A stretch of DNA of 20,909 bases from Thermoproteota archaeon (GTDB lineage: Archaea; Korarchaeota; JAOZGF01; JAOZFZ01): assembly GCA_027492035.1 (NCBI GenBank), contig JAOZFT010000034.1, positions 1 to 20,909 on the forward strand. Reading direction: 5' to 3'. Each line of letters starts with the position of its first letter. The first letter of the stretch is position 1. The position numbers and the translations under genes were made by a program. Shown here piece after piece: positions 199 to 18,145 of the stretch. Under the pieces are notes generated by a model, which worked only from the letters and a program-made list of their open reading frames with translations, ran no database searches and was not told the origin of the DNA.

Positions 199-209
199 GA
201 ATAATAAGA

Positions 210-351
210 GGGACGCCAATAAAAATTTAACTTCCAACCACCAACACTACACAGACCCGCAAAGAACACATCAACAAGGAAAACAATGCGAACCCCTTTA
301 AAAAACAACAATCCAGAAAAAACAAAACATCAAACATACACTTAAAACAAG
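210..351 (+). promoter_or_regulatory. CRISPR leader-like A/C-rich non-coding tract with TATA-like box
   Basis: Non-coding, strongly A-rich tract. TTTAAAAA at 297-304 lies about 50 nt upstream of the repeat-like sequence at 352-377. Confidence 0.5.
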
Positions 352-377
352 GAGTCTCGAAGAAAGAGAATTGAAAG
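352..377 (+). CRISPR. Single isolated CRISPR-repeat-like sequence (no array)
   Basis: GAGTCTCGAAGAAAGAGAATTGAAAG (26 nt) has an internal TCTC/GAGA mini-stem and the canonical archaeal 3' 8-nt tag ATTGAAAG. It resembles GAATCTC...GAG.ATTGAAAG-type archaeal repeats. No second intact copy seen. Confidence 0.6.
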
Positions 378-384
378 AAAGAGT

Positions 385-1041
385 TTAGTAGGGTTCATTT
401 ATCCAGATTATTTTCCTACCGGAGAAGTAAAGAGCCTTTAAATTATAGTTTACAGCTTGTCTTAGCAGGGCTATTGTCAAAGGCTTGGTTCCACCAGTTA
501 AATCTACAAGTATCTCATGGTTAAAGATGTTTTCCTCCACTGCCCTCCCAGTTATCTCGATCAATTTGTCAAGGTTCTCCCTTAAAACCTCCTTGTAGGG
601 TTGAACAATGAAGTTAACTCCAACTTCACCGTAAACTTTAAAAAATTTCTCTCTCACCTCAGGACTTGTAACATATAACACCTTGTCTGGTTTATATCCA
701 TGAACCTCTAAGGCATCCCTCAAATCTTTGTAAAGAGTTACTTCCTCGCCTAAACCTCCAATAAGTAAGAGAGGCATCTTTATGTCAAGTACATGTCTAA
801 CAATGCTTAAAAGACCTGGTTTCACCCTGTAAACTCCTCTCTCAATTTTCTCAATCACTCCCTCACGGATCAAAAACCTTACATGGTAATCCACACGCCT
901 CGAAACCTTAACCCTTCCAATTATCTCTGAAAACTCAGCTTTCTCCCTTCCACATAGAAAACTAAGTATAACTTTCCTAGCCCTGCTTTTAACCAATTCC
1001 TTGATCCTTAAAGCTGCTGTACTCAAATCAAACACTTCCAC
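385..1041 (-). CDS. wHTH-CARF putative cOA-responsive transcriptional regulator (Csa3-like, reversed domain order)
   Basis: N-terminal ArsR-like winged HTH (FSEI...VDYHVRFLIREGVIEKIERGVYRV). C-terminal Rossmann-like CARF domain with LLIGGLG first strand and the DLTGGTK signature. Confidence 0.8.
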   Translation of the reverse strand: MEVFDLSTAALRIKELVKSRARKVILSFLCGREKAEFSEIIGRVKVSRRVDYHVRFLIREGVIEKIERGVYRVKPGLLSIVRHVLDIKMPLLLIGGLGEEVTLYKDLRDALEVHGYKPDKVLYVTSPEVREKFFKVYGEVGVNFIVQPYKEVLRENLDKLIEITGRAVEENIFNHEILVDLTGGTKPLTIALLRQAVNYNLKALYFSGRKIIWINEPY

Positions 1042-1304: not shown

Positions 1305-2189
1305 TTGAAGAAGAGAGGAATCGGTTTGTCCATTATTCAAAGTTTAAAGTTTAATGTTTTCTGCTTGGAGGAAGGTGAAATCTCCTTTCCCGGACACGTC
1401 ATTCAAAGCATATTCTTCAATCTATTAAGAAAGGGAGACCCTGGGTTAGCCACTTATATCCATGACCTAAAAGCTATGAAGGGATACTCAGTTACACCTC
1501 TTCTCTACACAGATTCAAACAAGAAACTTAAACTTGCATGGAAAATCAGAAAGAAGCTAGAATACTTCTTTAAAATCTCCATTTACGGTAAACCCCTGTC
1601 AAACGCGGCTCTCACAATTTTAAAAGGGTTAGAAACAAGTTTCAACATTTACAACGCAAACTTCACCCTTGAATCAGTTGAGGTATCAGTTAAAACCTAT
1701 GAAGGAATCCAGCGGCAAAGCACACCGATAAATTCATTTTCCATTATGTTTATCTCTCCTACATGCTTCAAAAACTTTGAAACAAACCTTGTAAGTTTAT
1801 TTCCAACACCCTTCAGAGTCTTAGACAGCGCCTTAAGAGTTTGGAACAACTTCGCCCCCGAAAAACACAGATTCAAATGGGTTATAGAGGGAAAGGAAAC
1901 AGCTTCCCCATACAGGGAATGGATAAAAACATGTGTCTCAGAGAAGAAATTCAAGGTTAAAAGTGTAAAACCAATCGAACCCTACAAACTACCAGGTTTC
2001 ACAGGGCAAACAACCTATATAATCAAAAAACAGAGAGGGATAGATGAAGAGGAACATGAAGAATACTGCAAAATAACAGATACACTTCTAAAATTCGCTG
2101 AAACAGTTAATGTAGGCTCCCAAAGAACAACTGGAATGGGGGTAATAGAGGTTAAAACCAATACAAAACCCCAAGAACCCAATCAATAA
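1305..2189 (+). CDS. cas6: CRISPR pre-crRNA processing endoribonuclease Cas6
   Basis: RAMP features: 'LATYIHD....GYSVTPL', 'FISPTCF', 'LFPTP', 'GFTG' and the C-terminal G-rich loop 'NVGSQRTTGMG'. The true start may be the TTG at 1326. Confidence 0.92.
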   Translation: MKKRGIGLSIIQSLKFNVFCLEEGEISFPGHVIQSIFFNLLRKGDPGLATYIHDLKAMKGYSVTPLLYTDSNKKLKLAWKIRKKLEYFFKISIYGKPLSNAALTILKGLETSFNIYNANFTLESVEVSVKTYEGIQRQSTPINSFSIMFISPTCFKNFETNLVSLFPTPFRVLDSALRVWNNFAPEKHRFKWVIEGKETASPYREWIKTCVSEKKFKVKSVKPIEPYKLPGFTGQTTYIIKKQRGIDEEEHEEYCKITDTLLKFAETVNVGSQRTTGMGVIEVKTNTKPQEPNQ

Positions 2190-3233: not shown

Positions 3234-3545
3234 GACAAACATGTCGCGGAAGCAGAGAAAGCAATTGCTGACAGTTTACATCTACCGAAACAGTACCCTA
3301 TTCAAGAAACATTTCTTACTTTAACCCACTTAAAACATGACCTAGAGAAAATCTTAAGTTATACGCTAAAGATGAAATCAGATGCCTTACTAAAGAGACC
3401 ATGTCTATTAGAGTTAAAGGGTATAGACATTTCTAGTGCGTCAAAAAGATTTAACGAAGAACATTATAAAATTAAATTTATTTCCCTTTCAAAAGGAGTT
3501 AAAATCAGGAAATAGAGACTGACGATCAACGAGTTGTTAGAATAA
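3234..3545 (+). pseudogene. Decayed AbiEi-type (type IV TA) antitoxin, C-terminal remnant
   Basis: Start-less frame reads HVAEAEKAIADSLHLP...DLEKILSYTLKMKSDALLKRPCLLELKG...KGVKIRK*RLTINELLE*. This matches the AbiEi C-domain pattern EKxxxDxL / KRLGxLLE / KWxLxxN, with W replaced by TAG. Confidence 0.7.
3381..3545 (+). repeat. Diverged direct repeat of about 165-170 bp (second copy at 8524-8693)
   Basis: Collinear shared blocks: GATGC(C/T)TTACTAAAGAGAC, AAAAAGATTTAACGAAGAAC, TTCAAAAGGA, CAGGAAATAGAGACT, TCAACGAG and TAGAATAA. Confidence 0.88.
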
Positions 3546-3707
3546 CCCTGCAATGTCGATCCATCATTCAATTTGCCCTTTTCTTACACCATAAGTTTTA
3601 TCATAAAATAAATATATAGAGGAAAACCTTCCATTAATACTCTAATCATCCAAATGGGGATAAGACAAATCCAGGTGACACCTAACCAAAGTAGGGGGGT
3701 TTCTAAT

Positions 3708-4305
3708 TTGAACCACTCAACCCATGAATTAGGAACCGTAACTGTGAATGACATAGTTCAACACTTTTACTGCCCCAGGAAAGTTTACTTCCTTAAAACA
3801 ATGCAGACCCCCTTCAAACCAAGGAAAAAGATGGTTTTCGGATTAGAAACCCAAGAAAAGGAAAAGAAAAGGGTTAAGGAAAGAATAGATGTATACGGAT
3901 TCGAAAAAAGAGAAGTTAAAGCTATGCACTTAAACGTTGAAGCATACTGTGAAGAAATAGGGTTGAAGGGGGAAAATAGATGTACTCCTGAAACTTAAAA
4001 GCGGAGAACACATCCCAGTGGAAATAAAATACACAGAGAAACCAATTGTCCAAAGACCCTACAAAAAACAAGTTATAGCTTATGCAACCCTAACAGATTG
4101 CAAATACAAAACAACCACTGAAAAAGCAATAATCTACTTCTCAAAACAGAAAATATCCAGGAAAATAAATGTTTCAAGGGAAGACAAAGAAACACTTAAA
4201 AGAGATATAAAGAAAATAAGGGAAATGCTTACAAATGAAAAACCACCAAGGAAAACATCAAAGGAGAAATGCAAATACTGCGAAGTCGAAAAATACTGTG
4301 TATAA
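3708..4305 (+). pseudogene. cas4: Cas4 exonuclease split by a +1 frameshift (pseudogene or sequencing error)
   Basis: ORF1 has 'VNDI.QHFYCPRKVYF'. Deleting one G from the G5 run at 3968-3972 gives LKGKIDVLLKLKSGEHIPVEIKY (RecB-like motifs II/III), which continues into ORF2 with QVIAYA and C..C....C. Likely TTG start at 3708. Confidence 0.9.
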
Positions 4306-4855: not shown

Positions 4856-5632
4856 ATGTCAAAAGGGAAAATAGTTAGTATAGCACTCTTCTATCTGCTT
4901 GCCTACCTAATTGCTTACATTGTAAACCCCCTTCTGTTTCCACATTTGGAAATGCCACACCCCTTTCCCAGCCTCCTATTGACTCATACACTTACACTGG
5001 TTGAAATACTTTTAATCGCCTATTTGGTTTTAAAGTTAAACAACGAAAACTGCACCCTCTCAACCTTCGGGATTAGAAAAGATAACTTAGGTAATAGTTT
5101 CTTGTGGGCAGCAGCTTTCTCAACACCTATCCCGCTGCTTTGGCTTATCGGCACAAAAATTGTAGGTTTTGAAACCATTTTAATCGCTGCCAAACCCTCA
5201 TGGGCTAATCCACCAATTTCGCTACAAGTTTTGATGTCTGCTATACTTTTATGGATTCTGGCAGGCATTGTAGCGTTCATGTTCTGGGAAGCCTTCCCAT
5301 ATGAACTCATGAAGGATTTCCCCCAGAAGCTTGCAACACCCTTAATAGCAGTTTTATGGACAGGTCTATACAACACCCCCTTGTTGACAGGGAAAATTGA
5401 CCCATTTGATGCCATATTCTTCGGATTTCTTTTTACATTGACTTATCATAAAGCAAGAAATAGCATGGGAATATTGATGGCGTACCTTCTAAACGAGAAT
5501 CCTCTATGGTGGGTAACAGCAGCAGTATTTGGATCAAATATTAAAATGGCATTCACAGTTTTCCTCATCTTTAGGATGTTAATATGCTCCATATCAACAT
5601 TTTGGGTGATTAAAACGAAAAATTCTAAGTAG
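4856..5632 (+). CDS. Multi-pass membrane protein, CPBP/CAAX (Abi)-like with degenerate catalytic motifs
   Basis: About 7-8 hydrophobic segments. 'TFGIRK.NL' and 'GFLFTLTYHKARNSMGILMAYLLNEN' resemble the CPBP layout, but EExxxR, FxxxH and HxxxN are absent. GAGGA RBS precedes the ATG at 4856. Confidence 0.55.
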   Translation: MSKGKIVSIALFYLLAYLIAYIVNPLLFPHLEMPHPFPSLLLTHTLTLVEILLIAYLVLKLNNENCTLSTFGIRKDNLGNSFLWAAAFSTPIPLLWLIGTKIVGFETILIAAKPSWANPPISLQVLMSAILLWILAGIVAFMFWEAFPYELMKDFPQKLATPLIAVLWTGLYNTPLLTGKIDPFDAIFFGFLFTLTYHKARNSMGILMAYLLNENPLWWVTAAVFGSNIKMAFTVFLIFRMLICSISTFWVIKTKNSK

Positions 5633-5749
5633 AGAAAGAAATAACACCATCACTCCACCCGACTCTACGGTGCTTTGCAACCCTGTAAAAAACCCTGTAA
5701 AAAACCTTTGCATAATTTCTAGGTTTATGGTTACCAAGGTTGTCAAAAA

Positions 5750-7694: not shown

Positions 7695-8520
7695 TTCAAT
7701 CTCCTCCAACAGAAATTTTCAATTGTTTCCATCTTATCCTCACAATACTTTAACAACACTTTGCCATTACCCTTTTCGATTTCCACTACATTTCTTTCAA
7801 AAGCTGAATAAGTCAAGAAATCTCTTGCATTAGGTTCTCCTATCTCTTTTCCCAATACATCATTGTATATTTACCAGTTTCTGATATCTTTTCCTTCTAC
7901 ATCTTTCTCTAAGTATAAACATCAGTGCTAATTCTCATTTTAAGTCTTTCATCAAATATGAATAAATTATCTCTCAAATTCTTAATTTCGTCGAGAGTTA
8001 CCTCTGATTTCACAAAGAAATGAGTTTTTGATTCTTTAACAATATTGAAATTATATAGGTGAATATATGCTTTCAACTCTTTTCTAAATTTTACCTTTTT
8101 TCACAACTTTTAACTACCTTGATTTTTTACCTAATATATTTCTCATACAAATTTAAGACTTCAGAAATTATTTTCTCCAGCTTTTCTGGATAGAACCTAA
8201 AAAGAGCAATAGGCAACCCATTATATAATGCTCCAATAAAGGGTTGAAAGTTCTTTGTTATCTATTTCCCTGACACTTTTCAGCTTGTGTTCGAAAAGTT
8301 CTCTTCTTCCTTTATCGCCCAAGTTTTATAGGTTCCAGTGGTCTTTCTTGAATAATCTTTCGAGTAGAAGGAGTGAGATTGGGCAGAGTGTCTTCAACAA
8401 TGCTAATAAAAAATTTTTCTACAACCCTTGACCAAGAACCCGCCTTATCAGTGCTTTAAATTGTACTTTCTTAAAAATAGAAAGCATTTCCACTATTTCT
8501 TTAATAAGCTATGTAGTTAA
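7691..8520 (-). pseudogene. csx1: Decayed archaeal-type (MJ1666/DxTHG-like) csx1 pseudogene, 5'-truncated
   Basis: Broken frames read IKEIVEMLSIFKKVQFKAL, FIGALYNGLPIALFRFYP, EVTLDEIKNLRDNLF and PNARDFLTYSAFERNVVEIEK...LLKY...RRLK*. The last segment is a degenerate version of the Csx1 HEPN 'RNFLAHSGFE.N.VE'. Its TGA overlaps the csx3 ATG. Multiple stops and frameshifts. Confidence 0.82.
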
Positions 8521-8523
8521 GCC

Positions 8524-8770
8524 GATGCTTTACTAAAGAGACTAGGTTATCCGTTAGAATTGAAGGATATGGATATCTCTACTTGCATTAAAAAAGATTT
8601 AACGAAGAACGTTAGAAAATAATCCATTTTCCCCTTCAAAAGGATTTTAAAAACAGGAAATAGAGACTACCGGTCAACGAGGTACTAGAATAATGCTGAG
8701 TAAGAAGCCAAGAATATGGAGTTAATAAAAGTCGTCGGTTTCGGTGTTTTGGTAACAGAAAAGGATTATC
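8524..8770 (+). pseudogene. Second AbiE remnant: AbiEi 3' end plus AbiEii 5' stub
   Basis: Reads DALLKRLGYPLELKDMDIS.../NPFSPSKG/NRK*RLPVNEVLE*, then a TAATG overlap at 8691-8695 (MLSKK) and, in a shifted frame, 'VVGFGVLVTEKDYL', the AbiEii N-terminal EKDY motif. Confidence 0.68.
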
Positions 8771-10061: not shown

Positions 10062-10940
10062 CTACTTCATTTTTTCTATGTAACTTCGTACATCCAAAGT
10101 ATCATAATGGCCTTCTTTAAGTAGTAAAGCATATATGTTTTCTTTTACAGCGGCATCGCTCTCTGGATCAGGATTAAGCTTTAAAATTAATGCTCTCGAA
10201 TTTTCCTCATCTAATGTCAGTAATCCGAAGCCTTTGCTTTTAAGCCCCCCGACATATAAACCATTCGTTAAGATGTATTCTAACACCTTTGCAAACAATC
10301 TTGCTTCGCTTGAGCCATTATCTAAGTTGTCAATCACCACTCTGGTTTCAAAGTATAAACCTTCCTGTGGAGGAATCATTTCAGCTGAAAACAATCTTTC
10401 CCCTTCAACAACACCTATTTTCCTTGACATAGAAGTTGATGTATAAGTTGTTACTTTTGGCTTCACTATCGGTATTAAATCATAGAACAAAAGCTTGCCA
10501 GCTAACTTCCTCGATCCGAAAAGTAGACAAATTGGACAATTCATTGAAAAATAAATCTCCATTTTATCGCTTTCGCTTAGCTCATTCAGTTGATCTTCGG
10601 CGTAAAGTTTGCTAGCTAACTCAGAGGCAGCACTTAAGTATTTCTCATCTATTTTTGACGGCAAATGTTCATCTTTCCTGTGAAATCTGACTACTTCATC
10701 TACTTCGCTGCTTTTAAATTGCATGGATTTAGCTAAATAGGTTGCCAGCGACCTTAAAGCCCCTTTAAATGAGTTAGAGGGTATTATTGGAACTAAATCA
10801 TCTCCAACTCGAAGCCTTACAATTTGTTTAAGCGCCCCTTCCTGTCCATTCCCTACGTGAAGGGGGGTTTCAGGTTTTAGGAATAACTTAAAGATTGCTC
10901 TACTCACCAATTTTTCAAGGTGATTGACCTTACTGAACAA
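10062..10940 (-). CDS. cas7: Cas7-group RAMP (Csm3/Csm5-like)
   Basis: 'ETPLHVG.G', 'IPSNSFKGALRS', 'CPICLLFGS' and G-rich loop 'VGGLKSKGFG'. Confidence 0.88.
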   Translation of the reverse strand: MFSKVNHLEKLVSRAIFKLFLKPETPLHVGNGQEGALKQIVRLRVGDDLVPIIPSNSFKGALRSLATYLAKSMQFKSSEVDEVVRFHRKDEHLPSKIDEKYLSAASELASKLYAEDQLNELSESDKMEIYFSMNCPICLLFGSRKLAGKLLFYDLIPIVKPKVTTYTSTSMSRKIGVVEGERLFSAEMIPPQEGLYFETRVVIDNLDNGSSEARLFAKVLEYILTNGLYVGGLKSKGFGLLTLDEENSRALILKLNPDPESDAAVKENIYALLLKEGHYDTLDVRSYIEKMK

Positions 10941-12018
10941 AGGGAAACACCTCTAAAATGTTTAAGCCTACGTTTGAGAAGGAACCGAAACCCAACAGTT
11001 CCCTTTCAGCAATTTTCGTCGGGTTTAAGTCATTTTCTGTTTTGAAGAAATATAATGAACCTATTTCAGCTGCTTCAATAGATACTTTCGGCAGATTTGA
11101 CAGTAAACTAAACCCTGAAACTCTCGTCGTTTCTGTTAACACGTAATTTAGGTCCTTATATATAAGTAAAGGTTCAGCTTTTATTCCCATTCTACCAAGA
11201 TCTATGGTTGGGGTTGAAGTTAATTTCTCATTTAAAAAACTTAAGGAGAAAACCGGAGAAATCGCAATCAAAATAATTTTTCCATCAAAAAGTTCAAGGG
11301 TCTTTTTAATCCTATCGCTTTCTCTCTTTATGTAGCCTTTTTTTTCGCTGATCTTCACCTCTACATGGCCATATCCTCTTGAAATCGCTCCTCCGATGAA
11401 CAGATCAATTATTTCCTCATCTAAAAATCCAAGTTCTTCCATTCGATTTGAAAGATCTATTATTAACCCCTTAAATATTGACCCTGGAGATACCGCCACG
11501 TATCCATAAAGCATTTTGATCTCAGCTCCCTTCACTACTCTGTTGATACCTATGGCCTCTGTTTTAGAGTAAGTTGTTTCATGTTTAATGTAACTATTTC
11601 CCTCCATAAACACAAGTGCCCCTCCGATACTTTTCGTGGAGAAGATATGTTTCCCTTTTCGGCATATATATGGAGGGTTATAGGTTTCAAAGTTGAATGA
11701 AGCTATCCTTTTAGGCTCCTCAAAACTCTTAGGTACAAATATCTCCCCGCAAACTTTGCATTCATACATAAAGGGATGGGCTGGCTTTGCGGTTTCGTCG
11801 TTCACTACTGGATATGCTGGGTGGAAAAATAGTTTTGGATCCTTAAGTTCCCTTTTCACCAAGTCTTTTTTCCCTTCCCTCCAAGGTTTAGCTAGAAATG
11901 CTCCTCTAAGGGTTAAACCAGGGATTTCCTGTCTACTATGCACTAGGAGGTTCCCGGTTTTAGGGCCCGAGTGAACTAAAGGTGTCTTAACTTCAATCAT
12001 GGTTTCATATATCTTCAA
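10930..12018 (-). CDS. cas5: Cas5-group RAMP (Csx10/Csm4-like) with Zn-ribbon insertion
   Basis: 'IPGLTLRGA', 'FHPAYP', 'IGINR', central G-loop 'IGGAISRGYG', C-terminal 'GFG...GLN' and a CKVC...C....H insert. Confidence 0.8.
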   Translation of the reverse strand: MKIYETMIEVKTPLVHSGPKTGNLLVHSRQEIPGLTLRGAFLAKPWREGKKDLVKRELKDPKLFFHPAYPVVNDETAKPAHPFMYECKVCGEIFVPKSFEEPKRIASFNFETYNPPYICRKGKHIFSTKSIGGALVFMEGNSYIKHETTYSKTEAIGINRVVKGAEIKMLYGYVAVSPGSIFKGLIIDLSNRMEELGFLDEEIIDLFIGGAISRGYGHVEVKISEKKGYIKRESDRIKKTLELFDGKIILIAISPVFSLSFLNEKLTSTPTIDLGRMGIKAEPLLIYKDLNYVLTETTRVSGFSLLSNLPKVSIEAAEIGSLYFFKTENDLNPTKIAERELLGFGSFSNVGLNILEVFPFVQ

Positions 12019-12646
12019 GGCTTAGCTCCTCCCATATCGCCTTTACGAGAGGGTCTCTTAAAACTTCCCTTGGAACCTTACTCTTCTCTTTCACAATTTT
12101 AACCCCTACAGCTCCATTTCTACCAATCCTTTCGTAATTTAACTCTGCAATTGAAGCCATTAATGCTCTGAACTCCTCAATATTCAAATTAAAACCCTTT
12201 AAATCTACATAAAACCTCTTTTTAATTGATAGGTACTCAGCGGTGAAAAGCCCCATCTCTTCGGCTATTTTAGTAGCATCATCTATTTTAACATGGGTAA
12301 GCGTATTTGTTTCTTCATCTAACAATGCTGAGCCAACAAAAATTTTACTTTCAGGTCCATGAGGCTTCCCGAAGAGATTTGTAACAATATCTAACTTACT
12401 GCCTATTTTATTGGGGTAAACAGTTTCTGTTACCCTTCTGTAACCCAATAAATTAGAAATCCTTATTAAACTAGTTCTAAGAACCCCTTTAATAGTAGAC
12501 CCTGGAACAAGAAGCTTAGATCCCCCTTTTCCTCTCACCCTTAAGAAGGGGGCGTCAGATTTTATTTTAACAGATAAACCACCAGCCCCGACTATAAATT
12601 TTTTCTTAGTTTCTAATCTTAACCTAAGTTCTACATTAAAGTTCAC
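12005..12646 (-). CDS. cas7: Cas7-group RAMP (Csm3-like)
   Basis: 'FIVGAG', 'VPGSTIKGVLR', 'LFG', 'THVKIDD.T..AEE..LFT.E' and a short G-loop 'IGRNG'. Confidence 0.87.
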   Translation of the reverse strand: MNFNVELRLRLETKKKFIVGAGGLSVKIKSDAPFLRVRGKGGSKLLVPGSTIKGVLRTSLIRISNLLGYRRVTETVYPNKIGSKLDIVTNLFGKPHGPESKIFVGSALLDEETNTLTHVKIDDATKIAEEMGLFTAEYLSIKKRFYVDLKGFNLNIEEFRALMASIAELNYERIGRNGAVGVKIVKEKSKVPREVLRDPLVKAIWEELSLEDI

Positions 12647-15288
12647 TATCGCCCACCTTCAAGAACCTCAATCAATTGATAAAGGTCATATAAGTTGAAA
12701 CGTGGTTTATCAGATGGTATATAAAGTTCATCTAGTATTTCCTTAATTTCCCTTGCATCAACCTCTGTTCTTGACTCTCTGAGAGCGAAAATAACTCTGA
12801 TTTTTAAATCCGAGTCCCCTAATATATTCACTTGAAGCACTTTATTTAACAGGTTACGTAGTTTCCTTAATTTATTTAGCGAATTAGTTGAAATAACCCA
12901 AGAAGCAAACTCTTCCATTGATAAGTTTCCAAGGGACAAACCATTTGAGTAAATTGTCCTGATTAACCTTAGAATAGACCTTGGGTCTTTAGTATTTGAA
13001 ATCGTGTAGGGAAATTTCTCCTGGGAACTGATGCCCTCCTTTGAAAGTTGTTCGAGAACTGATCTAAGCGCTTCCCTTGTCATTGTTCCACCGTCAGCCG
13101 AGAGGAAAGATAAGCAACCTCTAAATTTACTACTGGGTTTCTCCAATGCAACGCTGTGATTTTCCCTGTAGTCCAGTGATCGAGCCCCCTTCTTAGCTGT
13201 TCTAAGTAGGTAATCAGCTGATTCATAGAGTTGAATTATTGGATGCTTAGGCTTAGCTACTGCGATTCCAAAGGAAAGAGTGGCTTTACATCCCATATGA
13301 AGATAAAATTCGTTTGCTAGGTGTAATGCAAAAGGGATAGCTAATGGTGAGGGCATCATTACTGCTCCATCGTCTCCTCCAAGGTACATTAAACCCAAGG
13401 ATAATCTGCAGAAATCATCTTCATTTTTACCTTTTATCATCTCTAGGAAATCTATGAAGGCCTGTTTCACTCCGTAATCAATACGAACACTTCTCTCAAA
13501 AGCATCTGTTATGGATATGCTTGAAGCCATTATTTCACTCATCAGGTTACCATCAAACTTAATGAGTGCTAGGCTTCTATACTTTCCTACTTTACCATTG
13601 CACAGTTCATCTAATGGATGACCTGCAATGTACTCCAAAATATGATCTCTAAGCTTTTCCCATTCAACCTTGATTATACTCTTCAGCTTTTTAGTCGTTA
13701 CTCTAGCTTTAAAGTGAATGCCGTCACCAACTTCCAGCTTCCTCTTACAAGTCGTGCAGATGTATTTTTCTCTCCTATAGTCCACAGCATATTTTTGTTC
13801 ACATAGTAAGCATAATTGAAAAATATTTGGGCTTACATCTCCAAGGAGACTTGTAAGTTTCTCTTTTAATATAGATTCATCGATTTCCCTGCTAATTAAC
13901 GAAAAATCTCTATACAAAGGGGAGAAACCAGTAGTGATGGATATGTTAAAGCATCTTTGGAAATGCTCTTTTAACCTTTGTATTTCTGAAACTTTGTTTG
14001 AAGGCATTATTAGTGTTAAGTTACCTCCTCCAAAATATAAAATTGTTTCTGCAGGTAATGTAAATTGATTCATCAAGTATAAGGGTATTGCCACATAACC
14101 TATGAAGTCAATTATTCTACTAGCTCCATTCATCGCCCTTATGTCATTACTTTTAATATATGCTTGAATCTTCCTCAAATCTAACCTTACAACTGAAATT
14201 TCATCCGTTATCAATGCTTTCCTTTTTTTCTCTTCATTTACAGAAATAAGTGACTCTTTAATCACAGGGTTCTCAGGGGAAATCTTTGATGCGTTCATAC
14301 AGAAATTCAAGGTTAATTTCTTTATTAATTCATCACCTACAAATTTCTCCCAGAATTTCCAGCTTGTGAAGGCTTTATAGAGTTTCTCATCCTCTCTAAC
14401 CATTGTTTCCCCGCAAAACTCATTTACACGGTTCAACAATTCATTTTTAAGGCTTTCATCTAGAAGTTTAGGGAGCAACCATATAACTCTGTCAATACCG
14501 CTTGCAAGTCGATCTGATTTTTCAAGTATATTACGGAAATATGTTAATTCTGATATTTCTTTTTCTTCGATGATGGATGAAGATTTATTAATGATCTCCT
14601 CTGCTTCGCTTCCGGATTCCACATATTTCTTAAACAATTCATGTACTTTTCTAGCTGATATTGATTTGTGTCTACGCCAGTCTAGGAATTTACCTAGGTC
14701 ATGAAAGATCGACGTCACTCTAACGATGGCTAAATTGTATGTATCCTCGCAACCGTATTCCCCAATATATAGACTAGAAGCCATCGCTGAAGTTGTAAGC
14801 ATGTGAATTAAAAGTGAAGATGTGTTGGAGGCAGGTCTAGTATCAGCAGGAAAGCTTAAAATCCTTAAAATCAGGGAATGACGAGGCTGAAACAACTTTT
14901 CATCCGAAATCATAATTCTATTTAAGATGTCCTTGTATCGTATAAGTGACTCCCAAGAATAATAAGGCATGTCTTCCCTTCTCAGCTTTCCTTTGTATTT
15001 AAAGTAAAAATACAGCGCGTCCATGGGAGAAAGAATGATATCAGGCAGTGGATCCAAATAGAGTTGAGATTTAAGGTAAAGGATAAATGAATCTAAAAAA
15101 TTATTAACGTCCAGCGAGGTCTTCAGTTTTTTCCCTCCGTTATCTGTGTAGTTCCTAACAACTTCCTCTATTAGTTCACAGAAAGCATTAAGCAGCGATT
15201 TTCCATCATCAGAGGATAATTCCTCTATGTAAACCGGGTTATTATTCTTCCCTCTCTTAGGAATAATGTATCCCCTTACGATATTCAT
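12646..15288 (-). CDS. cas10: Cas10 large subunit with HD nuclease and active-type cyclase palm
   Basis: 'PADTRP..N.SSL..H', 'FHDLGK' and 'SDRLASG' (HD domain), palm1 'YFGGGN', Zn finger CLLC...CTTC, and palm2 'KFDGN' with 'YLGGDD'. Confidence 0.96.
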   Translation of the reverse strand: MNIVRGYIIPKRGKNNNPVYIEELSSDDGKSLLNAFCELIEEVVRNYTDNGGKKLKTSLDVNNFLDSFILYLKSQLYLDPLPDIILSPMDALYFYFKYKGKLRREDMPYYSWESLIRYKDILNRIMISDEKLFQPRHSLILRILSFPADTRPASNTSSLLIHMLTTSAMASSLYIGEYGCEDTYNLAIVRVTSIFHDLGKFLDWRRHKSISARKVHELFKKYVESGSEAEEIINKSSSIIEEKEISELTYFRNILEKSDRLASGIDRVIWLLPKLLDESLKNELLNRVNEFCGETMVREDEKLYKAFTSWKFWEKFVGDELIKKLTLNFCMNASKISPENPVIKESLISVNEEKKRKALITDEISVVRLDLRKIQAYIKSNDIRAMNGASRIIDFIGYVAIPLYLMNQFTLPAETILYFGGGNLTLIMPSNKVSEIQRLKEHFQRCFNISITTGFSPLYRDFSLISREIDESILKEKLTSLLGDVSPNIFQLCLLCEQKYAVDYRREKYICTTCKRKLEVGDGIHFKARVTTKKLKSIIKVEWEKLRDHILEYIAGHPLDELCNGKVGKYRSLALIKFDGNLMSEIMASSISITDAFERSVRIDYGVKQAFIDFLEMIKGKNEDDFCRLSLGLMYLGGDDGAVMMPSPLAIPFALHLANEFYLHMGCKATLSFGIAVAKPKHPIIQLYESADYLLRTAKKGARSLDYRENHSVALEKPSSKFRGCLSFLSADGGTMTREALRSVLEQLSKEGISSQEKFPYTISNTKDPRSILRLIRTIYSNGLSLGNLSMEEFASWVISTNSLNKLRKLRNLLNKVLQVNILGDSDLKIRVIFALRESRTEVDAREIKEILDELYIPSDKPRFNLYDLYQLIEVLEGGR

Positions 15289-15605
15289 ATTCTTTCCATC
15301 AACTCCTTAAATTTAACTCTTCTTTCACTCAGCTCGACATGAGTGAAATATTCAGAGAATCTTTGGGCTGTTTCCGAGCTAATCTCGTTAAAAAGATAAT
15401 TTCCGTTGATTTTTAGCCATTCAAATCCCTTTAATAAGCCTTTAATCAACGTAAACGCAAACCCTAAAACCCCGAGGTCATTGACCCTACCTATCTCCGC
15501 TTTGGCAATTCTCCACGTTGTCAAGTCATTGGATACTATCAGGATTAATCCCGGTTTCAACTGAGTTAATTTCTCTTTTAACTCCTGAACAGTTAACTTG
15601 TTCAT
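15285..15605 (-). CDS. Small uncharacterised Cas-operon protein (possible Csx19-like subunit)
   Basis: 106-aa ORF overlapping both neighbours by 4 nt (ATGA-type coupling), directly before cas10. No motif recognised. Confidence 0.6.
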   Translation of the reverse strand: MNKLTVQELKEKLTQLKPGLILIVSNDLTTWRIAKAEIGRVNDLGVLGFAFTLIKGLLKGFEWLKINGNYLFNEISSETAQRFSEYFTHVELSERRVKFKELMERI

Positions 15606-16588
15606 ATTTCAACAATCCCCTTTTCAAAATCTATATGTTCACCATACTTACTTTTCATTAATATCCCCTTGACTTTTTCAATAAGCTCGGCAGTACCCCT
15701 CATCTCTTTCATCTCACCGTTCTCAAAGCTATATCCTTTGAAGTTTTTTAAGGTAAATTTCAGCAATCCAAACATGTACTTTTTTCTAAAACGTCTCGTT
15801 GTCACTTTAGGATTATAGACATATTTAAAGGAGCCGATTAGTATGGGGCTCCCCGAGTAAAGTTCAAATCCAAGAAAGAGAATAGATAAATCCAGTAAAC
15901 TCATGTTCAAACAATTAACGGATAATTTAAATTTGGATCCAGGCTTAACAGCTTCTATACCCTCTAACTCTATTAATTTCTCGGTGTTACCTGAAACCAT
16001 GTAGGCGTCTGAAAAATAAACCCTAGACGCTAAGTTTGGGGAGCCGAATAAATCGCAAACTATACAAACATTTGGGGATCTGCAAACACCACTTCTCATA
16101 TATCTAGTTTCCTCTCCCCAGAACTTCAAGTGATTTACTGCCCTTGCTTTGTCGAAAAACAAGGATTCAACTGAGTAACAAGAGTAAGAATATAGTTTTC
16201 CACTTATTTCAAATGGTTTAAATTTATACTCAACCCTAGATCTAACGGCTCCTTTAATAGAAGACCCAGGTATGAAATATTTGCCTTTTCTAGAAGGAAA
16301 AGACTTGGAAGGAGCTATCTTTTTCACTAGGAATTCCTTTCCAAGCCTTTTAAGTTCATCAATATTTAAATGTTCTTTTCTTTTAAGGATCCTAGATTTA
16401 TATGCCTTTATCCTTGATAAAAGCTTATGCGGCTCCTTTAATTCTTCTGGGACAGCTCCACTGAAAAGGTAACTGTTTGAGGGAGTGTAAGCTTCAAAGT
16501 TTAATATGACATTGAAGTGATCGGGTAAGACATGATCTCTACCTGTATATTTATCCTTTTTAACCTCTACTCTTAACTCTTTTGACAT
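15602..16588 (-). CDS. cas7: Cas7-group RAMP with insertion
   Basis: 'YFIPGSSIKGAVRSR', 'C....C..C.LFG' and 'SRVYFSDA'. The G-loop is degenerate (IGSFKY...FG). Confidence 0.87.
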   Translation of the reverse strand: MSKELRVEVKKDKYTGRDHVLPDHFNVILNFEAYTPSNSYLFSGAVPEELKEPHKLLSRIKAYKSRILKRKEHLNIDELKRLGKEFLVKKIAPSKSFPSRKGKYFIPGSSIKGAVRSRVEYKFKPFEISGKLYSYSCYSVESLFFDKARAVNHLKFWGEETRYMRSGVCRSPNVCIVCDLFGSPNLASRVYFSDAYMVSGNTEKLIELEGIEAVKPGSKFKLSVNCLNMSLLDLSILFLGFELYSGSPILIGSFKYVYNPKVTTRRFRKKYMFGLLKFTLKNFKGYSFENGEMKEMRGTAELIEKVKGILMKSKYGEHIDFEKGIVEI

Positions 16589-17423
16589 AGTCCCACCATG
16601 CTCTTTTACACTCGTTTAGAAAAGCAGATGGATCCTTAGCATTTACCTTTATTTCTTCGTCGTCTTCGTCCAGTCCTGGAAGAGAACTAAGCTCCCTTAA
16701 ATCCTTCCTATCTCCATCAGTGAAGACATATCCACTTAAGGAAGCAGCATCAACCTTAACTCTTCCGAAACCCCTTGATTTAAAGCCTCCAATCTTTAAA
16801 AAACCGCTGTTGATTTGATCAAGAATAACGGAGAACAGCCCCATCCCATAGTTAGGTATATTTCTGAACTCTACAAAACCGTTAAATACACTTCCAGGCG
16901 TGACGAATTCAACTGTGTACAGGGCCCCTCGTCTAACCGTGCCACTTCTCCTGTTAATGGCAATACCTGTTTTGACTCCTCTCTCAGGCAATGTTTCCCA
17001 TGGGGGATATGCATCCCCGAAAAATATATGGCTTGCATAACTGGAGGAACCATACATTTTACATATTAAACAGTATTTTTTGAGATGTTCAACGAGCTCG
17101 TCAAGTTCATTACTTCTCATTAACATTTGCAATTTATTGTTATTGTCATTTTTCTCCCTACAGCCTTCACCCGCCATGCAAATGCCTTTGATACCTGAAG
17201 ACCTGGCAATGAACTCTGAAGAAGATCTAAAAACACCTTTAAGGCTGCTTCCAGGTATAAACGGAACTTCAGCTTCATTTATTTTAATGGTTAAAACTTG
17301 TAGATCTATAGGAGAAGTGGGCTTCTTAGCTTTGCCAGCTCCTATCCTCAAAGGTGATAATGCCTTAAATCTAAGGTTTATCTTCAGATCTCTATAAACT
17401 ACATGATGTACAAACCAGCTCAA
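16560..17423 (-). CDS. csm3: Cas7-group RAMP (Csm3, likely catalytic backbone)
   Basis: 'SPLRIGAG...PID', 'IPGSSLKGVFRS', Cys cluster, 'IAINR..G' and G-loop 'IGGFKSRGFG'. Confidence 0.9.
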   Translation of the reverse strand: MSWFVHHVVYRDLKINLRFKALSPLRIGAGKAKKPTSPIDLQVLTIKINEAEVPFIPGSSLKGVFRSSSEFIARSSGIKGICMAGEGCREKNDNNNKLQMLMRSNELDELVEHLKKYCLICKMYGSSSYASHIFFGDAYPPWETLPERGVKTGIAINRRSGTVRRGALYTVEFVTPGSVFNGFVEFRNIPNYGMGLFSVILDQINSGFLKIGGFKSRGFGRVKVDAASLSGYVFTDGDRKDLRELSSLPGLDEDDEEIKVNAKDPSAFLNECKRAWWDYVKRVKSRG

Positions 17424-18145
17424 TGTTTTTCCTCCTCCAAGATTTTCCTATAATCTGTTGTTGCATCGCTTACAGTCATTGTAGCTCCATCTAAACACCT
17501 AACCTTTCTGATGTACATTTTTATCTGCCCTAATCCAACGCTACGCCTTGAACCAATGAATAACTCTCCTTCAACCAGCTTTTTCATGAGGTAATTGAAA
17601 AGATTAGTCCTTTTATCTCCTCTGTTTAAAATATCAATGTTTATCACTCTCAATTTCCATTGAAACAAGGCATGAGGGGTTACATACTCGATGTCAAAAA
17701 GTCTCCCGGCATGCTGACCCCCGGTTATCCTATTGATAGAAACGGCATTTCTAATCTCAGTGTGATAAACTTTAGGATAAGCGTCAAAAATATACACATG
17801 AGAAGCTATAGTGGGTCCGCCGAAAACTTGACAGACAAGGCAGGGTACATAATTCTCTCCAAGTTTCTCTTTCCTTTTTAATTCCCCTTCTTTAGGGTTT
17901 AATATATTGCAAACATAGCTTTGATCTTCTCCATAAACTGTTCTTACATATCTCTCAGCTTCAGACCTTAAAATGCCTTTTAAAGTGCTCCCAGGTATAT
18001 ATGGCTTTCCTTCTAATCTGATAATGGGATTATCTATAGCCCCTACTACAGATTTACCTGAACCAATTGATAAAGGTGTTAAATTTTCAAGGTCAGCTTC
18101 TAAGATGTACTCAATTAATAATTTATCGAAGTCTCCATACAACAC
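17420..18145 (-). CDS. csm3: Cas7-group RAMP (Csm3)
   Basis: 'TPLSIGSG....AIDNPI' (Csm3-type catalytic Asp position), 'YIPGSTLKGILRS', 'CLVCQVFG' and 'IGSRRSVGLG'. Confidence 0.9.
   Translation of the reverse strand: MLYGDFDKLLIEYILEADLENLTPLSIGSGKSVVGAIDNPIIRLEGKPYIPGSTLKGILRSEAERYVRTVYGEDQSYVCNILNPKEGELKRKEKLGENYVPCLVCQVFGGPTIASHVYIFDAYPKVYHTEIRNAVSINRITGGQHAGRLFDIEYVTPHALFQWKLRVINIDILNRGDKRTNLFNYLMKKLVEGELFIGSRRSVGLGQIKMYIRKVRCLDGATMTVSDATTDYRKILEEEKH

Follow-up and report, generated by a model that had tools for sequence, protein, structure and literature searches.

Standalone repeats are often found beside cas genes, and in type I, II and V systems some of them direct the effector to promoters of the host. 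Guides of the CreA, CreR and crlRNA type work with DNA-binding type I, II and V effectors, show partial complementarity to a promoter and usually involve two flanking repeat-like sequences. We know of no such host-gene-steering role of standalone repeats in type III systems, in which RNA cutting and the tag/anti-tag logic would allow the silent knock-down of a cis-antisense target. Cas6 cleavage at ATTGAAAG-type repeats leaves an 8-nt 5' tag. In E. coli, a leader and one repeat are enough for spacer uptake, and the 'long repeat/short repeat' loci of Methanocaldococcus jannaschii mostly carry several repeats with spacers. According to the portions of a preprint survey used here, standalone repeats occur in 39–44% of type III loci, and many standalone repeat units (SRUs) are degraded and probably functionless; for type III, those portions report no conserved SRU positions or targets (PMC10120712). 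Viral solitary repeats, named Racr, act as RNA anti-CRISPRs, as far as the consulted part of the source describes them (PMC10651486).

The 20,909-nt stretch of DNA analysed here (the window) carries a leader-like tract and one CRISPR repeat between cas2 and an opposed gene for a putative wHTH-CARF regulator (Table 1).

Results

Sequence comparison shows the element at 352–377 to be a genuine CRISPR repeat, of the same family as those in the host's array. The comparison with the genome's array repeats that the initial annotation had proposed gave 23 of 26 matching bases (manual count) to an array on contig C3 of the source assembly (G000). This contig continues the window contig (C37) via a 127-nt overlap and dead-ends at its 3' end in the array, the full repeat of which is GAATCTCACAGAAAGAGAATTGAAAG. 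The exact 12-mer GAGAATTGAAAG occurs four times in the 1.87-Mb assembly, every time in C37 or C3, and the tag is identical to the handle in the arrays of C3 and of two other genomes (G002 and G031). The repeat also belongs to the same family as the 24-nt array repeat of a same-phylum genome, and locus L008, a unit in the relative, aligns to window positions 317–377 with 91.9% identity over 62 nt (E = 7e-17). The repeat is single and ends in ATTGAAAG at 377, as first annotated. A search with the model R1, whose training set included the window copy, gave E = 2.6e-17 at 319–377; the next-best match in the window covered 18 nt within a RAMP gene (E = 0.037), and no second repeat was found in the window by R1 with filters off (one match at E < 0.01). 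Neither the window nor the orthologous contig shows the two or more regularly spaced repeats with unique spacers that make a CRISPR array.

Table 1. Positions of the features described, numbered from the first base of the window.
Feature	Position	Strand	Evidence or remark
cas2, first 66 codons (ATG 198–196), cut by contig end	1..198	-	Pfam CRISPR_Cas2 E 1.1e-12; TIGR01573 E 9e-10
Leader-like A/C-rich tract between cas2 and repeat	199..340	+	Composition, position; promoter and terminator roles predicted
TATA-like box TTAAATTTTTATT (minus strand), 20–32 nt upstream of cas2 ATG	218..230	-	Sequence
CCCCTTTAAAAAA, candidate TATA-like leader promoter	293..305	+	Similar motifs in other copies
T4/T6 runs, candidate terminators of the CARF transcript	347–344, 327–324, 322–317, 305–300	-	Read from sequence
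Conserved 11-nt block CTTAAAACAAG abutting repeat	341..351	+	Alignments A1, A2; leader-repeat junction or 5' part of a 37-nt repeat
Solitary CRISPR repeat, 26 nt, GAGTCTCGAAGAAAGAGAATTGAAAG	352..377	+	23/26 identity to C3 array repeat
ATTGAAAG, predicted 8-nt 5' tag after Cas6 cleavage	370..377	+	Sequence; predicted cut position
Would-be guide portion	378..414	+	7 nt intergenic, then antisense of CARF stop and last ~9 codons
wHTH + CARF protein, 218 aa, putative cyclic-oligoadenylate-sensing regulator	385..1041	-	Weak domain matches
cas6, only one in assembly	1305..2189	+	Pfam CRISPR_Cas6 E 2.9e-15; TIGR01877 E 2.9e-11
Type III-D-like effector: Csx7-type RAMPs, Csx10-like, small subunit, cas10 (12646–15288)	10062..18145	-	Domain matches

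The 11 nt abutting the repeat (family consensus GTTAAAACAAG) are conserved in nearly all copies of the unit, even in those with unrelated distal upstream sequence; because of this conservation, the 5' boundary of the repeat may be 341 rather than 352. The repeat RNA is predicted to be essentially unstructured (-3.5 kcal/mol, z 0.02), and the repeat with its flanks folds no better than shuffles. Of 56 cells, 55 keep a 4-bp mini-stem that precedes the cut site, but it shows neither compensatory changes nor any departure from shuffles; an Rfam search of the window returned no family.

The tract upstream of the repeat looks like a leader, being AT-rich and non-coding, abutting cas2 and resembling the other units. 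Its last 25–100 nt are common to other units, in a comparison confined to single-repeat units. Over the 150 nt that end at position 340, base frequencies are A 0.50, C 0.25, G 0.11 and T 0.14, so the tract is indeed A-rich, as the initial annotation had it, but the TATA that it also named is present only as TATA-like runs, namely TTTAAAAAA at 297–305 and AATAAAAATTTAA at 218–230, and a further TTAAAA at 342–347. Motifs like CC(C)TTTAAA(A), read by eye, lie ~45–100 nt upstream of the repeat in C34, C196, C155, C146 and C3:7017, and the candidate leader promoter reads TTTGAAAAA in the ortholog of the relative. The cas2 start lies 143 nt from the repeat, or 154 nt if the repeat is 26 nt, in divergent orientation. 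The TATA-like box on the minus strand suggests that cas2 has a promoter of its own. A small ORF of 65 aa crosses the leader in L041; since the window does not keep it, it was rejected as coding.

The cas2 at 1–198 is the only one in the assembly, and its domain begins at the residue of ATG-198. In the relative, the gene order at the locus is cas2, then csa1 and cas1. With the order taken from there, the window copy stands in an ordinary array position beside cas2-csa1-cas1, which supports a spacer-less array and counts against a guide gene. The frameshift that splits cas4 in the window and the lack of cas1 in G000 as assembled support the same reading. The incomplete bin of the one related genome (G001) has cas1, cas2, csa1 and cas6, and no match to the window Cas10 was found in it. 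For the effector, Csx7 scored above cut-off for 16560–17423 and 17420–18145, Csx10 matched 10930–12018 (E = 6e-11), and palm and HD domains were detected in Cas10. No Cas3 was found above cut-off in G000 or G001.

The CARF assignment of the opposed gene is weak but consistent. The matches to CARF_Card1 (E = 3.3e-4) and TIGR02710 (E = 6e-7 over residues 114–209) both fall below cut-offs, the wHTH part matches AbiEi_4 HTH (E = 5.5e-3), the product contains a DLTGGTKP motif, and there are weak PDB matches to a DUF1887 (CARF) protein and a small wHTH protein. A 95% identical counterpart is present in G001. The 7 nt after the repeat (378–384) read AAAGAGT and are followed by TTA at 385–387, the stop of ORF 385–1041 on the minus strand, exactly as annotated. 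The anatomical premises of a self-regulatory guide thus hold: the repeat is genuine and present once, its ATTGAAAG tag is intact, and it runs on the plus strand into the last CARF codons. Because this anatomy fits and cas6 and a type III-D effector are encoded in the same window, an antisense guide could form, with a target that would look like 'self'. Downstream of the CARF stop codon, the minus strand has its first oligo-T runs at 38–85 nt, so the 3' UTR of the CARF mRNA would have to carry the anti-tag.

The would-be guide portion ends at a T4 run (411–414), +34 from the tag. The C-terminus of the CARF protein is homologous to that of its paralog through the final residue, so the 'spacer' is ancestral coding sequence and not acquired. 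The only full match of the post-repeat sequence is the cis-antisense end of the CARF gene, and away from this site the 45 nt downstream of the repeat have best matches of 13–17 nt, which are at chance level (E = 0.19 or worse). The CARF paralog, on contig C9, has no repeat downstream. The solitary state is not in itself evidence for regulation, because the last repeat of a full array would give the same antisense RNA.

The window copy is one of a family. The last ~60 nt of the unit, i.e. the leader end and the repeat, recur at two further sites on C3. R1 gave five matches in G000 (the window, C3:5252–5307, C3:6959–7016 and two array repeats) and 14 in G001, each on a separate contig and five of them outside the training set. 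The 17 single-unit matches (3 in G000, 14 in G001) all came without a spacer; none of the units is in tandem, G001 has no two repeats 50–75 nt apart, and no second repeat-like match lies within or beyond 60 nt of the window copy or the other units. Homology among the units extends to the final base of the repeat and no further. Eleven independent copies were compared for orientation and tag. Six face a convergent gene, four are co-directional with their neighbour and one is unclear; the tag is ATTGAAAG in seven copies, ATTAAAAG in two, and ATTAAGAG and ATTGAAGG in one each, so that 4/11 are mutated. Since the units are scattered, have no orientation bias and include decayed tags, they fit generic, partly decaying elements better than purpose-built guides. 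The neighbours examined mostly resemble housekeeping genes (translations read by eye, without family search), and no tRNA genes were found in 12 scanned loci.

All 14 units of G001 are spacer-free despite the cas1, cas2, csa1 and cas6 of that bin, which is odd for acquisition-ready arrays and tells against the spacer-less reading. A run of T4 or longer follows the tag by 26–42 nt in 7/11 copies, against a background of 0.33 (P = 0.037, for an interval chosen post hoc). This placement resembles short guide-sized transcripts, again not what spacer-less arrays would lead one to expect.

The same single-repeat junction is present in the second assembly (G001:C40), the only other copy of the locus found, where the position of the repeat is kept. 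Positions 341–377 are identical (37/37) between the two, and the leader-like tract is 86% identical, whereas the flanking genes reach 97%. Over 114 columns of the distal leader there are 13 changes, versus 2 over the 80 columns of 306–384. This slower change around the repeat hints, weakly, at constraint (P about 0.03–0.12). Because this one locus is 95–97% identical, with 42–69% protein identity across the rest of the genomes, the two assemblies are not independent evolutionary witnesses. That the window copy is the best-kept one, while its distal leader varies, runs counter to a spacer-less relic. Synteny between G000 and G001 was not usable at the other units, whose neighbours lie on different contigs at 42–69% identity.

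Beyond G000 and G001, no CARF ortholog was found among 43 genomes of the phylum, and a scan of genome contigs with the CARF protein returned only the same locus again (L041). A 17-mer pattern matched 57 of 401 genomes, with ordinary arrays in G031, G055 and G099; three exact single matches that were examined (L089, L090 and L092) had no further upstream similarity. A metagenome scan with the repeat pattern gave five stretches, of which only L074 matched model positions 29–60 (repeat and junction block); it is solitary and repeat-like, in an uninformative context. The other four matched only in or near the pattern and were taken as chance. In a collection of viral contigs, the repeat pattern had 0 matches.

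Discussion

Our best explanation, in which belief and doubt are evenly balanced, is that window 199–377 is a spacer-less CRISPR mini-locus, either a naive or a collapsed (relic) array, without a dedicated regulatory role. A leader and one repeat stand where an array normally sits beside adaptation genes and would be transcribed away from cas2; they are one member of a family of leader ends with single repeats in this lineage, and several members show visible decay. Should the leader promoter be active, the predicted Cas6 cut in front of ATTGAAAG (370) would give a tagged RNA complementary to the terminal codons of the wHTH-CARF message. Since the CARF mRNA would also carry the anti-tag, a type III-D complex holding this RNA could cleave the mRNA and leave Cas10 switched off. 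The antisense RNA would then be an unavoidable by-product of the geometry and not a selected function.

The initial annotation had instead proposed a selected guide gene, which we consider unlikely. On this model, a leader-driven RNA, cut by Cas6 to ATTGAAAG plus ~37 nt antisense to the 3' end of the wHTH-CARF gene, would guide the type III-D complex to cut the CARF mRNA quietly, since tag and anti-tag pair, giving feedback on the regulator; cas2 would be affected only if the CARF transcript reads through. The exact geometry with its intact tag, the presence of cas6 and a complete III-D effector in the window without a type I effector helicase above cut-off, the (almost) perfect conservation of the repeat and proximal leader between assemblies where the distal leader is not conserved, and the placement of the T runs all speak for it, as does the anti-tag that the target would carry. 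However, the unit belongs to a scattered family without orientation preference, with tags mutated in several copies, and its 'spacer' is conserved C-terminal coding sequence without a trans target above chance. Read-through into cas2 is neither needed nor indicated, given the TATA-like box of cas2's own, the paralog lacks a downstream repeat, the phylum genomes yielded no more distant ortholog, and the consulted text of PMC10120712 reports no conserved positions or targets of type III mini-arrays.

An assembly artefact is quite unlikely, in our judgement. A multi-spacer array here and at the other units would have been collapsed to leader, repeat and trailer by population variation in spacers. 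Both genomes are fragmented drafts (42 and 220 contigs), L041, which is the same locus, is labelled a MAG, G001 has its 14 single units and no assembled array, and some units have differing 3' ends, as a join through a degenerate terminal repeat could produce. Yet contig overlaps of 127 nt far exceed a repeat, so a join would need supporting sequence, and the C3 array in the same assembly broke the contig at a repeat boundary instead of collapsing. Old trailer-proximal spacers, usually common to all cells, would remain, but no unit shows one. Many positions vary from unit to unit, and ~5 separate the C3:7017 copy from its ortholog in G001, unlike the repeats of an active array. The identical junction in two assemblies also argues against a collapse.

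A broader form of the guide hypothesis, very unlikely in our estimate, takes the scattered units as self-contained genes for fixed 'self' guides, each with a TTAAAA box, tag, local sequence and T-run terminator, whose RNAs would be loaded by type III-D. A TATA-like TTAAAA box does lie within the conserved unit, ~25 nt before the tag. The tag, ~35–40 nt of local sequence and a T-run terminator would yield a crRNA-sized RNA, perhaps without Cas6, and the III-D complex would silently cut the mRNA of any gene converging on a unit, e.g. that of wHTH-CARF, because cis-encoded targets always carry the anti-tag. If true, host genes, among them the regulator of CRISPR's own signalling, would be under fixed post-transcriptional control by CRISPR.

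It is highly improbable that the minus strand is what functions, with the G/T-rich complement of 300–377 as CARF 3' UTR and oligo-T terminator and the anti-repeat either incidental or pairing with pre-crRNA repeats. This reading is favoured by the T4, T4, T6 and T6 runs at 38–85 nt beyond the stop codon, by a G/T tract similarly rich in T-runs that follows an array trailer in the same-order genome G002, and by the 6/11 units just past a convergent gene. Against it stand the 4/11 units without one, a conserved core that is the repeat and not the T-runs, a minus-strand RNA fold no better than shuffles (z 0.65) and the homology stop at the repeat 3' end, which it leaves unexplained.

The geometry of the locus suits a clean test, since it pairs a single repeat and an intact tag with a target that is the CARF regulator of the system itself, and the scattered single-repeat family of G001 would allow testing whether RNAs of this kind exist. 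Without them, this would be a commonplace case of array loss or a naive array, and a reminder that single-repeat sites with a leader should be checked against the reads in metagenome bins.

Among known systems, Racr shares with the unit a solitary repeat that mimics array repeats but, in the part of the source consulted, is carried by viruses or mobile elements to inhibit Cas proteins (PMC10651486), whereas the examined G001 units lie among housekeeping-like genes. An origin as a viral or mobile-element solitary repeat was rejected on these neighbours, the lack of viral-contig matches and the lack of tRNA genes in the scanned loci. The M. jannaschii elements are likewise many dispersed leader-like segments followed by CRISPR repeats, here with one repeat per assembled copy. 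With CreA/CreTA, CreR, crlRNA, scaRNA and tracr-L, as far as the partial sources on them go, the unit would share, if transcribed, a repeat-derived RNA outside an array that redirects the system's own effector to a host gene. It differs from the CreA, CreR and crlRNA type in that its repeat is single, its cis-antisense match to the 3' end of an mRNA is complete, and the effector is of type III and cuts RNA; two repeat-like sequences around a 15–60 bp spacer are not present, nor is a spacer partially complementary to a cas or toxin promoter, off-site matches being at chance. Like the SRUs in the consulted portions of the survey (PMC10120712), it is a single intergenic repeat-like sequence in a CRISPR-cas locus that is kept in a close relative; unlike them, it has a leader-like flank that it shares with no fewer than 10 other single units, the majority of which lie outside cas loci, with only a type III-D effector and no partially complementary promoter target. 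Compared with a minimal or naive array, some copies here have decayed and lie far from cas genes, and the window cas4 is frameshifted, but the locus shares with such an array a leader and exactly one repeat beside adaptation genes, with a conserved leader-repeat junction.

Locus anatomy and identity of the repeat

The window is the whole of one contig (C37) in a 42-contig assembly. It holds a leader and one repeat by the adaptation genes, where arrays normally lie, and the remainder is a CRISPR-Cas locus. As the initial annotation described and the coordinates bear out, the solitary repeat ends at 377 and the stop codon of the opposing CARF gene follows 7 nt on. The 186-nt gap between the minus-strand cas2 and the CARF gene consists of an A/C-rich tract (A.50, C.25, G.11 and T.14 in the 150 nt preceding position 341) and the repeat. 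The CARF protein carries a DLTGGTKP motif, with signals for an N-terminal winged helix (AbiEi_4, E 5.5e-3) and a C-terminal CARF domain (CARF_Card1, E 3e-4; TIGR02710, E 6e-7, both below cut-offs), and has weak PDB matches. A paralog at L006:1480-2118 (G000:C9:516435-517073, same genome), distant from any cas gene and with no repeat downstream, shares 44% identity in an alignment of 209 residues that extends to the protein's end. The cas4 reading frame shifts at a G5A4 run near 3968-3978, through either a genuine frameshift in the gene or a sequencing error in the homopolymer. A non-coding element of ~190 nt with no match in Rfam occurs twice (copies 73-78% identical): 3361-3550 lies in the long gap that precedes cas4, and 8504-8698 in the one separating csx3 from the Card1-like gene.

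Features of the locus in window coordinates
Feature	Position	Strand	Remarks
cas2	ATG at 198 to contig end	-	Pfam Cas2, E 1e-12
A/C-rich tract	199-340		upstream of repeat
CRISPR repeat	352-377	+	GAGTCTCGAAGAAAGAGAATTGAAAG
8-nt tag	370-377	+	ATTGAAAG
Spacing between repeat and CARF stop	378-384		7 nt
CARF stop codon	385-387	-	TTA on plus strand
CARF gene	385-1041	-	218 aa; weak but concordant domain signals
cas6	1305-2189		sole copy at the locus
cas4	3654-3998 and 4018-4305		two frames
PIN gene			
Csx1/TM1812-family gene			
csx3/crn3			
Card1-like gene			
Type III-D-like effector	cas10 at 12646-15288		Csx7 RAMPs, Csx10-like protein, cas10

Contig C3 (L001), which overlaps the 3' end of C37, reaches a dead end within a CRISPR array at its 3' end (L001:11601-11697, minus strand). 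In minus-strand order, a full 26-nt repeat GAATCTCACAGAAAGAGAATTGAAAG is followed by a 35-nt spacer, a degenerate last repeat and unique sequence; the leader and the remaining spacers are absent from the assembly. Comparison of 352-377 with the host array, suggested earlier, gave 23 of 26 identical positions. Across 1.87 Mb there are four exact matches to the 12-mer GAGAATTGAAAG, always in C37 or C3. A same-phylum genome (G031) carries an ordinary array with a 24-nt repeat, GAATCTCACAAAGAGAATTGAAAG, and a same-order genome (G002) a 50-repeat array with the same 8-nt 3' end. The window repeat is a genuine CRISPR repeat and of the unstructured ATTGAAAG type (predicted RNA fold -3.5 kcal/mol, z 0.02). 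The sole regularly spaced repeat from a k-mer scan of the assembly (C18:2053-2342) was rejected as an array, being a Lys/Arg/Ile/Asp-rich coding tandem repeat with a period of ~70 nt.

The solitary state recurs in a second version of the locus

Using R1, a model of the leader end plus repeat, with filters off, we found one significant match in the window (319-377, E 2.6e-17), the runner-up having an E of 0.037. Position and orientation of the repeat are the same in a near-identical locus of the related genome G001 (contig C40, L041), which reads cas1-csa1-cas2, leader, single repeat, 7 nt, CARF gene, cas6. The two versions are identical at 341-377 (37/37) and 378-384 (7/7), and share 86% of the leader (199-340), 96.7% of the CARF gene and 97.5% of cas2. 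Changes number 2 in 80 columns at 306-384 and 13 in 114 at 199-305; given the intergenic rate, zero change over 26-44 nt has a P of about 0.03-0.12, a hint of constraint and no more. The two versions are not independent witnesses, as C37 and C3 match three small G001 contigs (C40, C20, C183) at 95-97% DNA identity, whereas other G001 proteins are 42-69% identical to those of G000 and non-syntenic. This contrast, together with the outlying composition of C37 and C3 for their size (high tetranucleotide distance), suggests that a region of roughly 32 kb was recently transferred horizontally or mis-binned. For a conservation test of the CARF gene, no ortholog was found beyond this one near-identical locus among 43 genomes of the phylum.

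A scattered family of single-repeat units

The window unit belongs to a family that is in part decaying, and its last ~60 nt have the consensus AAAACACnAAAnATAnACTTAAAACAAG + GAATCTCGAAGAAAGAGAATTGAAAG. Two further units lie on C3 (5252-5307 and 6959-7016), making three sites in C37/C3, and G001 has 14, each on a different contig (11 strong; 5 outside the model-building set). The examined loci were L008-L017, L055, L068, L070, L001:5252-5307 and L001:6959-7017, the G001 contigs being C34, C223, C101, C107, C181, C196, C155, C146, C183, C20 and C40. None of the scattered units has a spacer or second repeat, and nowhere in G001 do two copies lie 50-75 nt apart. The remaining 59 genomes searched gave weak or repeat-only matches alone, those in G055 being ordinary arrays. 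Homology ends exactly at the repeat's last base and reaches 25-100 nt upstream. Since an 11-nt block, GTTAAAACAAG, is retained in nearly all copies, either the repeat measures 37 nt, or it measures 26 nt and the block is a conserved junction with the leader; the shorter length is the one favoured by outgroup arrays.

Neighbours of the examined units are mostly ordinary-looking (housekeeping) genes: AcnX, confirmed by Pfam, and, judged from translations, prenyltransferase-, decarboxylase-, endonuclease III- and sugar-kinase-like genes. In a tally of raw ORFs (70 aa or longer) flanking 11 independent units, six had a convergent gene (stop 1-156 nt away; +8 in the window), four had a co-directional downstream gene, and one was unclear. 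The tag is ATTGAAAG in 7/11 and mutated in four, and the copy at C3:7017 differs from its G001 ortholog at ~5 positions. Seven of the 11 units have a run of at least four Ts 26-42 nt past the tag (background 0.33; P 0.037, range picked post hoc). One solitary repeat whose ATTGAAAG tag is intact (L001:5271-5307) directly follows the gene for the AcnX small subunit and ends 1 base before ORF 5308-5709 (133 aa, no Pfam family); being co-directional with this ORF, the unit would make up the 5' end of its mRNA, not an antisense RNA. An apparently solitary repeat-like sequence ending AGAAAGAGAATTGAAAG also occurs on a GC-richer metagenome contig (L074:2196-2227), with no clear genes nearby.

Guide-RNA geometry and competing explanations

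We give about an even chance to the window unit being a spacer-less array without a dedicated role, and infer that it is either naive or was collapsed by recombination between repeats. An active leader promoter would then transcribe antisense into the CARF gene. The candidate, CCCCTTTAAAAAA at 293-305, recurs upstream of several copies, but its counterpart in the ortholog is TTTGAAAAA. The locus's sole Cas6 would cut before A370, yielding a predicted ATTGAAAG followed by the antisense of the CARF stop codon and last codons. This CARF end is ancestral coding sequence: the C9 paralog aligns to the very last residue, and the would-be guide is therefore no acquired spacer. Reading past the CARF stop, T4-T6 runs are first met on the minus strand at 38-85 nt, so the CARF mRNA should carry the full anti-repeat and anti-tag. 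In type III systems, a target bearing the anti-tag is cut by Cas7-like subunits and Cas10 is not activated. By these rules the silent cutting proposed in the initial annotation is coherent, and it would hold equally for the last repeat of a complete array. As cas2 is preceded by a TATA-like box of its own (218-230), the proposed read-through of the CARF transcript into that gene is not required, nor do the data point to it.

That the unit was selected as a cis-antisense guide is unlikely. The geometry is exact, the window tag is intact, this copy is the best conserved of three orthologous unit pairs, and the T-runs add a weak signal. However, the family has no orientation bias and includes decayed tags, the unit occupies an ordinary array position, no target in trans was found, and conservation is seen in one near-identical locus only. 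These comparative data do not favour a self-regulatory guide. Collapse of a normal array during assembly is distinctly improbable: C37 and C3 overlap by 127 nt, the C3 array broke its contig at a repeat boundary and stayed uncollapsed, old spacers are retained at none of the units, and the units differ among themselves. A minus-strand terminator or 3' UTR is very improbable.

Comparison with known systems

The regulatory cr-like RNAs CreA, CreR, crlRNA, scaRNA and tracr-L work with DNA-binding effectors through partial complementarity, in contrast to the window's type III-D-like effector and cis-antisense arrangement. In a survey of standalone repeats and mini-arrays of CRISPR-cas loci (PMC10120712), one or more repeat-like sequences are reported for 39-44% of type III loci; in such loci they are not enriched between cas genes, no conserved mini-array positions or targets are reported for type III, and many single repeat units are judged spurious. 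No type III cis-antisense guide was found in the literature covered, nor anything pertinent on scattered leader-plus-single-repeat loci in archaea. The window element, a lone repeat unit that has a leader, is of a kind already known; what is unusual and worth following up is the scattered family of single-repeat units, none of which has spacers.
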